A stretch of DNA of 64,000 bases from Enterobacteria phage GiZh. The notes under the pieces were generated by a model. It searched no databases and had not been told where the DNA came from. It saw only the letters and a program-made list of their open reading frames with translations. Position 1 is the first letter of the stretch. Each line of letters opens with the position of its first letter. Positions 44,969 to 58,525 of the stretch are shown here, piece by piece. Position numbers and translations under genes: made by a program. The DNA lies in sequence record NC_054903.1; one strand, 5' to 3'.

Positions 44969-45156
44969 TATTCTTCTACATGTTGTTTACGACCTTTCTT
45001 ATCAATAAAGGTATATTCAACGAATGTTCCAATGTAGTCTTTATCTACATCATGTGGACTATTAATTGGACATTTAGTACGGCAAATGCGTTCCCATTGA
45101 CGAATAATTACTGCTTTGTTTTTAGGATCAAACGGATGCGGGTAATGTACTTTCAT
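44944..45156 (-). CDS. hypothetical protein
   Basis: 70-aa ORF. Confidence 0.4.
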   Translation of the reverse strand: MKVHYPHPFDPKNKAVIIRQWERICRTKCPINSPHDVDKDYIGTFVEYTFIDKKGRKQHVEEYCLKVTWL

Positions 45157-45607
45157 AATCCACCACTATTAAATCAATATCAGGAGTAAACATGTCGATT
45201 AATTTAGAAACCTTATCCCAATCGCCGCCAGCAATACCACAACCTATGCGTGGAATGTAAATTACCGGTTTAAACAAAAGGGTTTCTGCCTGTAGATTTA
45301 ATTCTATCATGCAGTTTACTAAAGCACCATAATCAAGATTAGGACCTGGTTCGTATTGCGTATACAAGTTATAACATATGCCAAAACCATTAGGTTTATG
45401 TTTAAAAACAATAGACATATCGCCTAATTTATCACGAGAACCGTACTCAGTAGTGGTTTTATCTATTTCTAAAATTTTGGGATAGGCTCTTGCTAATTGA
45501 CCCGCTACACCTGAACCCATAGTATGAAAACAATTGCACCCGTGCGCAATAATATTACCTTGAAGAAATAGGGCGACAATATCGCCCTTGATATATTTTG
45601 CAATCAT
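45128..45607 (-). CDS. macro domain protein (ADP-ribose binding/processing)
   Basis: 159 aa; Gly-rich motifs NCFHTMGSGVAGQL and IGCGIAGGDW typical of macro domains. Confidence 0.6.
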   Translation of the reverse strand: MIAKYIKGDIVALFLQGNIIAHGCNCFHTMGSGVAGQLARAYPKILEIDKTTTEYGSRDKLGDMSIVFKHKPNGFGICYNLYTQYEPGPNLDYGALVNCMIELNLQAETLLFKPVIYIPRIGCGIAGGDWDKVSKLIDMFTPDIDLIVVDYESTLPASV

Positions 45608-46490: not shown

Positions 46491-46952
46491 TCATTGAGTT
46501 TTAATTACTGCTTTAGAAGCCTTTCCTGGTAAACGACGACTGTTGATAATTGCCATCCTGCATTGAAGTGACGGGTTTTTGAACTTCTCATTAGGCTTAC
46601 AAACCGTAAATCCAAGCCAAAGATTTCCATCTGTGATTTCTAAACGTCCAGGACGATATTCAACCCCATCAATAAAATCCTCGTCAATGTCAGGACGCGG
46701 AGGCATACTCAGGAATTCATTAACTTCTAAAACATGGTCTTTTATTTTATGGAATAATTCAAAAACATATGTCTCATCAATCTCCCGTTGAATTGCACGA
46801 TCAAGAAGATGCTGAGAATATTTTAGATGAAACGATGAGACCCCTGCTGCTTTTGATGCCTCACGAATCTCATTGTTAATTTGACGAAACTCCGACTCAA
46901 AATGACGACGAAGCTTATTTCGACGGATAAAAACTTCTGTGTTGATAGTCAT
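46491..46952 (-). CDS. regB: endoribonuclease RegB
   Basis: 153 aa, size and position as T4 regB; early promoter immediately upstream; ATG verified. Confidence 0.7.
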   Translation of the reverse strand: MTINTEVFIRRNKLRRHFESEFRQINNEIREASKAAGVSSFHLKYSQHLLDRAIQREIDETYVFELFHKIKDHVLEVNEFLSMPPRPDIDEDFIDGVEYRPGRLEITDGNLWLGFTVCKPNEKFKNPSLQCRMAIINSRRLPGKASKAVIKTQ

Positions 46953-46979: not shown

Positions 46980-47010
46980 ATTATACCACAGTCAAGAGGA
47001 AAAGTAAACA
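46980..47010 (-). promoter_or_regulatory. T4-type early promoter upstream of regB
   Basis: minus strand GTTTACT, 17 nt, TATAAT. Confidence 0.55.
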
Positions 47011-47011
47011 G

Positions 47012-47332
47012 TTATTCTTTAAATCTAATCAATTTATTCATAGACTTTGAAACTTCTGCACGAACCTCACGTAAGTTTTTAAGCTGTTCAAGACGCTGCT
47101 CATAGTAAGCAATTTCATCTTCTTCGAGACAGTCCTGTGAATCTTCTTTAAGATAACGTGCATAGTCCTGAAAAGCTTTACGGACTACTTCCTGAAAGTC
47201 ATCAAGACTTTGAATTTTCTTAGGAGCGGCAGATACACGACGAGGTGCAGTATAATACTCATAACCAAACCCTGCACTTAATTGAGCCATTAGTATTTTT
47301 CCTCTGGTTGGAACACTGCACGACAAGCCCAC
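47012..47332 (-). CDS. hypothetical protein (vs.3 position)
   Basis: 106-aa ORF. Confidence 0.45.
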
Positions 47333-47592
47333 ATACTGGCTTCTTTGAGTTTCGTTTTAGCAATAGTTAACTGATCGAGGCTTTCAGCGTAATTCTTCGC
47401 GAGTTCATCATCTTCACAGCTATCAAATGCTTCCCAAAATTCATCGTATAAAGCATCAAAGATAAGTCCTAAACGAACTTCAGCGTCTTTAATAGCATTT
47501 ACTTTACCGATTTTTTCGTCGGTATGCGGCTTATAACCTTTAATATCTTCAATCATATTTGACTTCCTCACCAGTGCATAAATCATATTCAA
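47290..47592 (-). CDS. hypothetical protein (vs.4 position; possible Acb2-type cyclic-nucleotide sponge)
   Basis: 100-aa ORF; call by synteny with T4 vs.4 only. Confidence 0.35.
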
Positions 47593-47770
47593 CTAAACGA
47601 ATAGGTTCATGAATGCCATATCCTTGAACAGAAATTTCTGTCGTAGGATAAATTCCATCAATATCACCCATATTCCAGGCTTCATTAAATTGCTGTTCGC
47701 CTGAATTACTAAACCACTCGGCGAAAGCATTTAGCACATCTTTAGAACCTTCAATAATTATCTTTGCCAT
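47549..47770 (-). CDS. hypothetical protein
   Basis: 73-aa ORF. Confidence 0.45.
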   Translation of the reverse strand: MAKIIIEGSKDVLNAFAEWFSNSGEQQFNEAWNMGDIDGIYPTTEISVQGYGIHEPIRLVEYDLCTGEEVKYD

Positions 47771-48132
47771 TACAAACTCTCGGTGAAGGTACGAGCGATA
47801 ACGTCGCGCTGCTGTTCCGGAGTCAGAGAATTAAAGCGAACTGCATAACCTGATACACGGATGGTCAGCTGCGGATATTTTTCCGGATGCTTAACTGCAT
47901 CTTCCAGAGTTTCACGACGCAGAACGTTAACGTTCAGGTGTTGACCACCTTCAATTTTAACTGTAGGCTGTGGTTCAATTTCAATTTCACGGGCATGCAA
48001 ACCGTAGAAAATTTCTGGGTCTACAAAAGAGTCCTCTTTAAAGGTTTTAGAGACAATAATTCGTGCTTGAATACCATCTTCAAAATAAATAGTACCTTTA
48101 TGTGTGCCTTCAAGAATTTGATATGCTTTCAT
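47770..48132 (-). CDS. autonomous glycyl radical cofactor (GrcA/YfiD-like)
   Basis: 120 aa; C-terminal glycyl radical motif [25 protein letters not shown]. Confidence 0.75.
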
Positions 48133-48138
48133 ATAACC

Positions 48139-48519
48139 TCAATTAGAAAATAAATTTATCCAAGATTGTTCTTTAATTAAAAATGGCTCAGAATCATATG
48201 CCATTAAACTTTGGGTAATTAGTCCTTTAAAAGGCCCATCAATAAATTCCATGGTAAAATATGGAATTTTATTCATTAATCTTGCATTAGGAGCAGTGCA
48301 CAAAACTCTGCATCCTTTGAATACGCCTTTTTGTAATTTGTATTGCTTGGGATAAAATTCGCTTAAAATGTTATTATTTGCCAAAATTTCAAAATGATTT
48401 ACCAATTTATTTTTAATAGTTTTTGGCGAAAAATAGAGATATTCGAAAAGCTGTGTGTCTGTCATCATTGCATTCCGATTACGAAAAACTGTGGACGAGT
48501 AATACCACCAATGCAACAT
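48139..48519 (-). CDS. hypothetical protein
   Basis: 126-aa ORF; overlaps upstream ORF by 55 nt. Confidence 0.4.
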   Translation of the reverse strand: MLHWWYYSSTVFRNRNAMMTDTQLFEYLYFSPKTIKNKLVNHFEILANNNILSEFYPKQYKLQKGVFKGCRVLCTAPNARLMNKIPYFTMEFIDGPFKGLITQSLMAYDSEPFLIKEQSWINLFSN

Positions 48520-49052
48520 TTACTATTACAGCAGTAGTGTACAGTGTCAATATGGACGCTATAAATCTTATCCATATCAGGAGATTTGACAGGCTCATCA
48601 ATTATATACAAAATTCGCGAAAGCGATAAACCTCTGAACTTGCTTCCTTTATTACCGATAAAACTACGGACAGAATCGGTAAATAAACGGAATCGAATAT
48701 CATCGCTAGAATAACGAGAAAATTCTTTTTTAATGTGGCCTGCAGAAATTTTAGCGTAAGCTGAAGTATTAGAAAGAACAATAACTGTTCCACCATCATA
48801 CAGCCAATTAGCGGCAAAGTTAGTTACTGCAGTTGATTTACCGGATTGACGTCCACCATCTATACGAAGTGTGCAGTACTGTTTAAGTAATTCTTCAAAT
48901 GGTGGGATATAATCGTTTTTACAAATTTCTTCTACTCTAGCATCAGAATGGTGTGTAAAAGCATTCATCAGGGATAGATAAGGACCAGTTAAAAATGTTC
49001 TCATTTTATTCTCTCTAAATTTGGGCCATTCCGTGGCGCATGAATTGTCCAT
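48465..49052 (-). CDS. P-loop NTPase
   Basis: 195 aa; Walker A GGRQSGKST, Walker B-like LYIIDEP; start may be internal Met. Confidence 0.5.
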   Translation of the reverse strand: MDNSCATEWPKFRENKMRTFLTGPYLSLMNAFTHHSDARVEEICKNDYIPPFEELLKQYCTLRIDGGRQSGKSTAVTNFAANWLYDGGTVIVLSNTSAYAKISAGHIKKEFSRYSSDDIRFRLFTDSVRSFIGNKGSKFRGLSLSRILYIIDEPVKSPDMDKIYSVHIDTVHYCCNSKCCIGGITRPQFFVIGMQ

Positions 49053-49145
49053 TTCTGTATTTACCCATTACCGCACTCAGGCTCGACCTTATCACAGGTT
49101 GGCGGGAATCCCTCACAGAATCATGAGGTCCAGCTTGTTCCCATA

Positions 49146-49619
49146 TTATTTGAACGATTTAACGTACTGAATAGAACCTTTACTATTCACAAAGGCAATT
49201 TTACCATTTTTATTATACATGGTAGCAGTACGTTGATAACCATAAGTTTGTTTACCAGATTGATAACCAACTAATGCGAAATTATCTTCGCCCATTTTAT
49301 TCTGTTTAGCGCGAATGCGTTCATGACCATGTGCCATAAGAACCTTAGCATCACCAGTTGCAATGGATCGACGAGTTTTTTCATCTTCAACTGTATTAAC
49401 AAAGTCGTCAAATGAATCAAATTTAGCATGAGATTTATTATACAATTTTCCATCTACTGCATAATTATATCCCTGTACATCCATCTCAACTTCTGTACCA
49501 TCATCCAATACAGCAGTGATTTTTTGACCTTTTTTAAATTTCAAAAGATCAGTAAAAGATTCAGCAATAATTTGAGAATTAATAGCTGCTTCAGTGATAA
49601 ATTCTTGATATGTTTTCAT
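49146..49619 (-). CDS. internal protein candidate (capsid-targeting-like N-terminus)
   Basis: 157 aa; N-terminus MKTYQEFITEA matches the recalled CTS of T4 internal proteins. Confidence 0.6.
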   Translation of the reverse strand: MKTYQEFITEAAINSQIIAESFTDLLKFKKGQKITAVLDDGTEVEMDVQGYNYAVDGKLYNKSHAKFDSFDDFVNTVEDEKTRRSIATGDAKVLMAHGHERIRAKQNKMGEDNFALVGYQSGKQTYGYQRTATMYNKNGKIAFVNSKGSIQYVKSFK

Positions 49620-49628
49620 ATGTTTCCT

Positions 49629-50045
49629 TTAAATGTAAATATTTTTACCGTAATACTTATACCAATGTGGTTTCATTAAAATTTTTTCATCAAGTCGTTG
49701 TTGACTCAATTTAATAGCTGATTTGCATGGATTATAATCATTTTTCCATTCTACTGGAATATCGCTGATGTCAGGAACTTCAGTATCTTTTATACTGAAC
49801 CCGCGTTTTAAGCATTCCGTTATAATGTCTAATTGACTCTTTCGCAAAAATTCTAACTTATCGTAAAAGAACGTAACATGACCAGAACCTAAAATAAACT
49901 CGGAAGATATTTTAAAATCTTTAACGCGCTTACCGTTTGCCACATGCTTACGAACTATACCAAAAACACGCGGCAATTCACGGTATTCTGCGATTAAATG
50001 TTGATCAGCAAGTTCAGATACTAAAGTCAAATTAATACGAGTCAT
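49629..50045 (-). CDS. denV: endonuclease V (pyrimidine dimer glycosylase) DenV
   Basis: 138 aa; [29 protein letters not shown]... matches recalled T4 endo V. Confidence 0.95.
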
Positions 50046-55344: not shown

Positions 55345-55420
55345 TGGTCGAGGCAGTAGGGATCGAACCTACGACCTAGGACTTAGAAGGTCCTTGCTCT
55401 TCCTTCTGAGCTATGCCTCG
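55345..55420 (-). tRNA. tRNA-Arg (anticodon UCU)
   Basis: cloverleaf folded by hand: acceptor CGAGGCA/TGCCTCG, anticodon loop CTTCTAA, T-arm GGTTCGATCC, 3' ACCA. Confidence 0.85.
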
Positions 55421-55424
55421 GATT

Positions 55425-55499
55425 TGGCGGACGTGATAGGATTCGAACCTATAACCAATCGCTTAACAGGCGATCGCTCTGCCATTGAGCTACACATCC
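55425..55499 (-). tRNA. tRNA-Asn (anticodon GUU)
   Basis: acceptor GGATGTG/CACGTCC, anticodon loop CTGTTAA, T-arm GGTTCGAATCC, 3' GCCA. Confidence 0.85.
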
Positions 55500-55503
55500 A
55501 AAT

Positions 55504-55590
55504 TGGTGGGGAGTGATGGAGTCGAACCACCCGAGTCGCAATGACAATGGATTTACAGTCCACACCGCTACCTCTACGGGATAACTCCCC
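55504..55590 (-). tRNA. tRNA-Tyr (anticodon GUA)
   Basis: acceptor GGGGAGT/ACTCCCC, anticodon loop CTGTAAA, long variable arm, T-arm GGTTCGACTCC, 3' ACCA. Confidence 0.85.
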
Positions 55591-55602
55591 TAATTCATAA
55601 TT

Positions 55603-55677
55603 TGGTGGCCCTGGGTGGAATTGAACCACCATCTGGCGATTATGAGTCGCTTGCTTGAACCTTCCAGCTACAGGGCC
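55603..55677 (-). tRNA. tRNA with anticodon CAU (Ile2 lysidine-type or Met)
   Basis: acceptor GGCCCTG/CAGGGCC, anticodon loop CTCATAA, T-arm GGTTCAATTCC, 3' ACCA. Confidence 0.8.
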
Positions 55678-55678
55678 T

Positions 55679-55754
55679 TGGTGCTGATTGACGGAATCGA
55701 ACCGCCGACCTTCTCATTACAAGTGAGTTGCTCTACCTACTGAGCTAAATCAGC
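55679..55754 (-). tRNA. tRNA-Thr (anticodon UGU)
   Basis: acceptor GCTGATT/AATCAGC, anticodon loop CTTGTAA, T-arm GGTTCGATTCC, 3' ACCA. Confidence 0.85.
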
Positions 55755-55759
55755 AAAAC

Positions 55760-55849
55760 TGGCGGAGGCGATAGGATTTGAACCTATGAGTCGCCGGAGC
55801 GACTGCCGGTTTTCAAGACCGGTGCATTAAACCACTCTGCCACGCCTCC
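55760..55849 (-). tRNA. tRNA-Ser (anticodon UGA)
   Basis: acceptor GGAGGCG/CGCCTCC, anticodon loop CTTGAAA, long variable arm, T-arm GGTTCAAATCC, 3' GCCA. Confidence 0.85.
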
Positions 55850-55851
55850 AG

Positions 55852-55925
55852 TCTCCATACAAGGATTTGAACCTTGGACCTCCTGATCCCAAATCAGGCG
55901 CTCTACCAAACTGAGCTACACGGAG
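55852..55925 (-). tRNA. tRNA-Pro (anticodon UGG)
   Basis: anticodon loop TTTGGGA, T-arm GGTTCAAATCC; CCA not encoded. Confidence 0.8.
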
Positions 55926-55935
55926 TAAATTAAAT

Positions 55936-56009
<74 letters not shown>

Positions 56010-56013
56010 AAAT

Positions 56014-56101
56014 TTGGTGCGAGAAGTGGGACTCGAACCCACAAGGAAATCATTCCGCAGCATTTTAAGTGCTGTACCTTTACCAATTTGACCATTCTCG
56101 C
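56014..56101 (-). tRNA. tRNA-Leu (anticodon UAA)
   Basis: acceptor GCGAGAA/TTCTCGC, anticodon loop CTTAAAA, long variable arm, T-arm GGTTCGAGTCC, 3' ACCA. Confidence 0.85.
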
Positions 56102-56102
56102 G

Positions 56103-56175
56103 CTGGGAATAAAGGACTCGAACCTTTGCATCCTGGAATCAAAATCCAGTGCCTTACCAACTTGGCTAATTCCCA
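56103..56175 (-). tRNA. tRNA-Gln (anticodon UUG)
   Basis: acceptor TGGGAAT/ATTCCCA, anticodon loop TTTTGAT, T-arm GGTTCGAGTCC; CCA not encoded. Confidence 0.85.

Positions 56176-57828: not shown

Positions 57829-58525
<697 letters not shown>

Follow-up and report, generated by a model that had tools for sequence, protein, structure and literature searches.

We analysed a 64,000-nt stretch of the genome of Enterobacteria phage GiZh (NC_054903.1; hereafter the window), which is a segment of a Tequatrovirus (T4-like) genome; by megablast the region studied here matches Tequatrovirus phages at 95-99.5% identity. Using T4 proteins as tblastn queries (90-100% identity), we found that the T4 gene order vs.1, regB, vs.3, vs.4, vs.5, vs.6, vs.7, vs.8 is kept on the minus strand. 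The ORF studied here occupies the T4 vs.4 position, between vs.5 and vs.3 and adjoining regB on the same strand, as judged from the T4 map and the annotation of Escherichia phage JLBYU22. The genes of the locus are as follows:

46491..46952, minus strand: regB endoribonuclease (Pfam PF10715 REGB_T4, 231 bits; 99% identical to T4 RegB)
47012..47290, minus strand: vs.3, 92 aa (T4 Vs.3, 96% over 92 aa at 47290..47015; PHROG 2037)
47290..47556, minus strand: vs.4/acb2, 88 aa (PDB 7UQ2, Pfam PF24729, PHROG 717, tblastn)
47549..47770, minus strand: vs.5, 73 aa (PHROG 1986 over its full length, E = 1.3e-43; tblastn with T4 Vs.5; DNA alignment)
47770..48132, minus strand: vs.6, GrcA-like (Pfam Gly_radical, 66.8 bits; 99% identical to T4)
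48139..48519, minus strand: vs.7 (tblastn with the T4 protein)
48465..49052, minus strand: vs.8 (tblastn with the T4 protein)

The initial annotation had described a 100-aa ORF at 47290-47592 as the second ORF downstream of regB. This minus-strand ORF does exist, with a TTG start at 47592 (ORF listing of the window), but the true vs.4/acb2 gene is 47290..47556 on the minus strand, comprising 88 codons plus a stop and beginning with the ATG at 47556. Likewise, the gene is second in map order, after vs.3, but all of these genes lie on the minus strand, which places it upstream of regB in the direction of transcription. We placed the start at the ATG because homology, the Shine-Dalgarno sequence and the T4 and JLBYU22 annotations agree on it. 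Homology to T4 Vs.4 starts at residue 13 of the 100-aa ORF (phmmer against PDB sequences), a T4 Vs.4 query maps to 47556..47293 in the window (tblastn), and MIEDIKGY forms the first residues in the T4 annotation, the JLBYU22 annotation and the crystallised construct (residues 1-88). In our alignment of 35 homologues, 35 of 35 start at this motif or one residue before it. Two further features lie just ahead of the ATG:

47565..47569, minus strand: Shine-Dalgarno-like GAGGA, read from the sequence ...GGTGAGGAAGTCAAATATGATTGAAG..., within the 3' end of vs.5
47557..47592, minus strand: the 12 extra codons of the TTG-started ORF, outside vs.4 and inside vs.5

The GAGGA stands on the upstream side of the ATG with an 8-nt spacer, and the 12 extra codons are vs.5 coding sequence in another frame, with no counterpart in T4 Vs.4, 7UQ2 or any of the 35 aligned homologues. 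We see very little chance that the product is instead a 100-aa protein with a 12-residue N-terminal extension ahead of the Acb2 core. A mechanical ORF call does reach the TTG at 47592, but a product started there would require a 44-nt overlap with vs.5, and it is at odds with the position of the GAGGA, with the unmatched extension and with the ATG used in both the T4 and JLBYU22 annotations; moreover, Y8 near the N-terminus forms the ligand pocket, so that an extension would be structurally awkward. The TTG-started product was dropped on the grounds of homology, Shine-Dalgarno position and existing annotations.

The 88-aa gene is closely packed with its neighbors. At the vs.5 stop codon and the vs.4 start, the two genes share 8 nt (ATGATTGA), which suggests translational coupling, the vs.4 stop and the vs.3 ATG overlap by 1 nt (TAATG), and the vs.6 stop and vs.5 start also overlap by 1 nt. 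Given these overlapping starts and stops, and since no terminator-like hairpin was found on the minus strand from 48132 to 47012, the block from vs.6 to vs.3 looks like one tightly coupled translational unit. The product of vs.6, a gene two positions upstream of acb2 with vs.5 in between, is an autonomous glycyl-radical cofactor of the GrcA/YfiD-like kind. T4 vs.4 likewise sits between vs.5 and vs.3, beside regB. Owing to a 1-nt indel, however, the T4 reference has a vs.5 of 58 aa that terminates 37 nt ahead of vs.4, in place of the 73-aa vs.5 found here, which runs into the vs.4 start. The form of vs.5 in JLBYU22 is 73 aa as well, and PHROG 1986 is matched over its full length. Relative to this 73-aa form, the T4 reference (L001 4382..4558) carries a 1-nt deletion (ttcg-cgagt versus ttcgccgagt) that shifts the frame and yields the annotated 58-aa Vs.5; because of this deletion, the annotated T4 vs.5 may be a frameshifted form.

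We did not identify a promoter specific to vs.4, as a sigma-70 scan returned 20 matches compared to 19.2 in shuffled sequence, and the only notable minus-strand sites were one upstream of vs.7 (48550..48522) and one upstream of regB (47008..46980). Because promoter-like matches were no commoner than in shuffled sequence, the timing of vs.4 expression is presumed by analogy to be that of T4. In the whole window, a MotA-box-like middle-promoter pattern (TGCTTNA-N11-13-TANNNT) had 21 matches where 4.6 were expected, a count that none of 100 shuffles reached. Most of the matches were on the minus strand; none of these lay between 47556 and 53669.

We are highly confident that 47290..47556 is the orthologue, in this T4-like (Tequatrovirus) phage, of the cGAMP sponge gene vs.4 (acb2) of phage T4. 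Its product has the same length as T4 Vs.4/Acb2 (NP_049728; PDB 7UQ2; PMC10097602), with 83 of 88 residues identical (94%) by pairwise alignment, and matched the PDB 7UQ2 entry 'Vs.4' over the full length (E = 3.6e-53; phmmer against PDB sequences). The same search returned a weak match to the Acb2 of phage PaMx33 (8H2J, 8IXZ; E ~0.04), also aligned over the full length, in which Y8 and K23 align with Y11 and K26, the key residues for cGAMP in the PaMx33 protein. Sequence similarity places the protein in the Acb2/Vs.4 family, with a score of 70.5 bits against Pfam PF24729 Acb2_Tad1_hairpin (cutoff 27) and a match to PHROG 717 (E = 3.4e-33), the group used by Jenson et al. to gather Vs.4 homologues (PMC10097602). 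It is identical (88/88) to the annotated vs.4 product of JLBYU22. At the DNA level, 248 of 267 positions match T4 vs.4, and the codon differences comprise 11 synonymous and 5 non-synonymous changes, a pattern consistent with purifying selection. The orthology, the retention of published functional residues, the fold, the synteny and purifying selection are all supported here. The initial annotation had assigned an Acb2-type sponge at the vs.4 position from gene order, and had taken an absence of similarity to Acb2 as the outcome that would count against it. T4 synteny bears out the position beside regB, the 7UQ2, PF24729 and PHROG 717 matches and the predicted fold bear out the family, and the alignment with T4 Vs.4/Acb2 contradicts any absence of similarity. 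The positional inference is thus supported as correct, with only the start codon and the orientation relative to regB in need of mending.

Work on T4 Vs.4 has shown that it binds 3',3'-cGAMP (Kd ~30 nM) as a hexamer with three cGAMP at the dimer interfaces, that Y8 and F82 stack on the bases while H11, K23, and R79 provide hydrogen bonds or salt bridges, that mutations at Y8, F82, L29, A66, A73, A77, T12, and S74 abolish CapV inhibition, and that F33A destabilises the hexamer (Jenson et al., 2023, PMC10097602). By pairwise alignment, the ligand-contact residues Y8, H11, K23, S74, R79, and F82 are all as in T4, T12 is identical as well, and the hexamer-interface residues L29, F33, A66, A73, and A77 are all retained. 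Across the 35 homologues, which extend down to 53% identity, the published functional residues either do not vary or are conserved to at least 90%. The five differences from T4 Vs.4 (E13D, L44F, N46S, C50D, and F52L) all fall in family-variable columns, at residue 13, where D is the family majority in the 35-homologue alignment, and at the hairpin tip, residues 44-52, which lie inside a hypervariable central segment (columns ~34-65 of the same alignment). Residues 44-52 account for four of the five substitutions, among them C50D, which turns the T4 motif C47-x-x-C50 into C47-x-x-D50 through loss of its second cysteine; an effect of these tip substitutions on stability or specificity is formally conceivable.

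The AlphaFold model of the protein, a monomer built from an input alignment without the T4 sequence, had a pLDDT of 87.3 and two helices (13-45 and 50-81) with residues 44-52 as the hairpin tip. The predicted fold is like that of T4 Vs.4, and the top Foldseek matches in the PDB were 7UQ2 chains (TM 0.78, E ~1e-10), followed by PaMx33 Acb2 (8H2J/8H2X, TM 0.72-0.75). The protein has the features of the Acb2 family, namely a two-helix hairpin protomer of ~90 aa and the residues of the cyclic-dinucleotide pocket.

Homologues of the 88-aa protein were found in 1241 phage records (tblastn). Identity was 99% or higher in 58 of these, 95-99% in 194 and 90-95% in 235, and the T4-type allele belongs to this 90-95% class. 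The closest cluster in a collection of 5.8 billion proteins, at 98% identity, has 373 member sequences. The allele carried here is common among sequenced Tequatroviruses, although most GenBank records still name the gene 'hypothetical protein'. Because homologues occur in 1241 phage records and synonymous changes exceed non-synonymous changes relative to T4, 11 to 5, this comparative record indicates that the ORF at 47290..47556 is not a chance ORF.

By analogy with the T4 protein, the product is most likely a hexameric sponge for 3',3'-cGAMP and related cyclic dinucleotides. The two-helix hairpin would assemble into an interlocked hexamer with three dimer interfaces, each providing one pocket for one cyclic dinucleotide, in which Y8 and F82 would stack the bases and H11, K23, S74, and R79 would contact the ligand. 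Upon infection, host CD-NTases would make 3',3'-cGAMP and related cyclic dinucleotides, which Acb2 would sequester without degrading them; CBASS effectors such as CapV would then stay inactive, and the phage would replicate. The same nucleotide binding would also expose the phage to the decoy-based Panoptes system.

The likely ligand spectrum can be framed by comparison with known Acb2 proteins. T4-Acb2 binds cyclic dinucleotides, with a Kd of ~84 nM for 3',3'-cGAMP, but does not bind cA3 or cAAG (Cao et al., PMC10312549). The Acb2 of Pseudomonas phage PaMx33 (p26; 8H2J, 8H2X, 8IXZ, 8J8O) shares the PF24729 family and the fold with the window protein, but is only ~22-25% identical to it and has a second pocket, with R67 and T74, in which cyclic trinucleotides are bound as well (PMC10312549). 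In contrast, in T4-type Acb2 the position of PaMx33 R67 is occupied by D61, the pocket is smaller and cA3 is not bound (PMC10312549), and the window protein is in the T4 state. Cao et al. attributed the lack of cA3 and cAAG binding to D61 in place of PaMx33 R67 and to an unkinked helix, whose Y37, A57, L60, D61, and T64 would clash with cA3; a D61R mutant of T4-Acb2 still did not bind cA3 (PMC10312549). Judged by sequence, the PaMx33-type trinucleotide pocket, marked by an Arg at the R67 position plus a Thr at T74 and by an enlarged pocket for cA3/cAAG, was not found in the window protein, which has D61 and T68 at these positions. Because Y37, A57, L60, D61, T64, and T68 are the same as in T4 by pairwise alignment, we infer a T4-type, dinucleotide-only Acb2 that probably shares with T4 Acb2 the lack of cyclic-trinucleotide binding.

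T4 Acb2 also binds the Panoptes decoy 2',3'-c-di-AMP (Kd ~62 nM), this binding triggers OptE toxicity, and T4 escapers of Panoptes are loss-of-function mutants or mutants in the pocket (F82C), not loop variants (PMC12657218). Because F82 and Y8 are kept, the phage should be sensitive to Panoptes.

We considered whether the changes in the protein could mean something other than an ordinary T4-type sponge. A remnant in decay or without function, kept only through its linkage in the vs cluster, has a probability close to nil: the reading frame is unbroken over its full length, all functional residues are conserved, the excess of synonymous differences from T4 speaks for constraint, and the identical protein recurs in dozens of independently isolated phages. 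The clustering of T4 differences in one region raises the alternative of a hairpin-tip variant (L44F, N46S, C50D, F52L) whose ligand spectrum or affinity is shifted relative to T4 Acb2, for example by discriminating against the decoy 2',3'-c-di-AMP or by gaining a signal such as 3'cADPR. There is precedent in the family for such shifts, since the ligand spectrum varies among Acb2 homologues (PMC10312549) and some of them bind 3'cADPR instead of cGAMP (PMC12393519). Nevertheless, we consider a shift very unlikely, given that the known pocket residues are all identical to T4, that the segment 34-65 is hypervariable family-wide and without reported dinucleotide contact (PMC10097602), and that the Panoptes escapers of T4 did not arise in the loop (PMC12657218).

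Specificity for 3'cADPR fits no better. In the Thoeris-inhibiting Acb2_43, both termini carry additional beta-strands and the pocket is built from other residues (PMC12393519), and neither these strands nor these pocket residues were evident in the window protein, whose termini are identical to T4. A Thoeris-type specificity was dropped, as termini and pocket are T4-identical and lack the Acb2_43 features. A related idea, that F44/S46/D50/L52, the common natural allele, which lacks the second loop cysteine of T4, tunes Acb2 stability or ligand discrimination, is a long shot; such tuning might, for example, lower the affinity for the decoy 2',3'-c-di-AMP while keeping cGAMP binding. If true, hairpin-tip tuning would represent a natural 'anti-anti-anti-defence' polymorphism. 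The preferred reading is that of an ordinary, intact copy of vs.4/acb2, a gene that is already characterised, and it holds no new biology.

The Pfam hairpin domain of the protein is shared with Tad1 (Thoeris anti-defence 1), another small sponge that forms oligomers and captures immune nucleotides. However, Tad1 sequesters gcADPR (as well as CDNs and CTNs) and has additional structure; by description it stands apart from the window protein, an Acb2 orthologue. The window also contains a second anti-CBASS gene:

57832..58287, minus strand: acb1 (gene 57B), 99% identical to T4 57B (Pfam PF23474 Acb1, 202.7 bits)

Acb1 (T4 57B) serves the same goal, removal of the CBASS signal, but belongs to an unrelated family (PF23474) and is an enzyme that degrades cyclic nucleotides, whereas Acb2 sequesters them without cleaving (PMC10312549, PMC12657218). 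acb1 is a functional partner of vs.4 that lies physically outside the vs.4 locus. Like T4 (PMC10312549 for T4), the phage has the two known anti-CBASS genes, one for a sponge (acb2) and one for a nuclease (acb1), and the two together predict broad evasion of cyclic-dinucleotide CBASS along with Panoptes sensitivity. The assignment is of use for the annotation of records labelled 'hypothetical protein' and for host-range reasoning in phage therapy.

Several loci around the vs genes differed from T4. Compared to T4, vs.8 has an 8-nt indel near its 5' end (window 48465..49116, minus strand), and the first 35 residues of T4 Vs.8 (219 aa in T4) map to 49116..49012 in another frame than the 195-aa ORF; JLBYU22 annotates a short vs.8, oddly as a 'putative large terminase subunit'. 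Between vs.8 and denV, 49146..49619 (minus strand) encodes a 157-aa DUF7412 protein (PF24183, 319 bits; 'Ip4' in the JLBYU22 annotation) whose N-terminus, MKTYQEFITEA, has a weak likeness to T4 IpII (33% over 79 aa). The T4 genes ipII and ipIII are absent between denV and e, where the gap is only ~60 nt here, and the 49146..49619 region looks like a variable internal-protein locus.

Identity to T4 drops to 57% for the tk.4 macro-domain protein (45128..45607, minus strand; compared with T4 Tk.4) and to 77% for denV (49629..50045, minus strand), against 99-100% for their neighbors vs.1, regB, vs.6, and vs.7. This mosaic divergence of tk.4 and denV suggests allele replacement. Further along the window, ten tRNA genes lie at 55345..56175 on the minus strand (Arg, Asn, Tyr, Met(cat), Thr, Ser, Pro, Gly, Leu, and Gln); the T4 cluster has eight annotated tRNA genes, without Asn or Tyr, and an inserted segB, for which there is no apparent room here.
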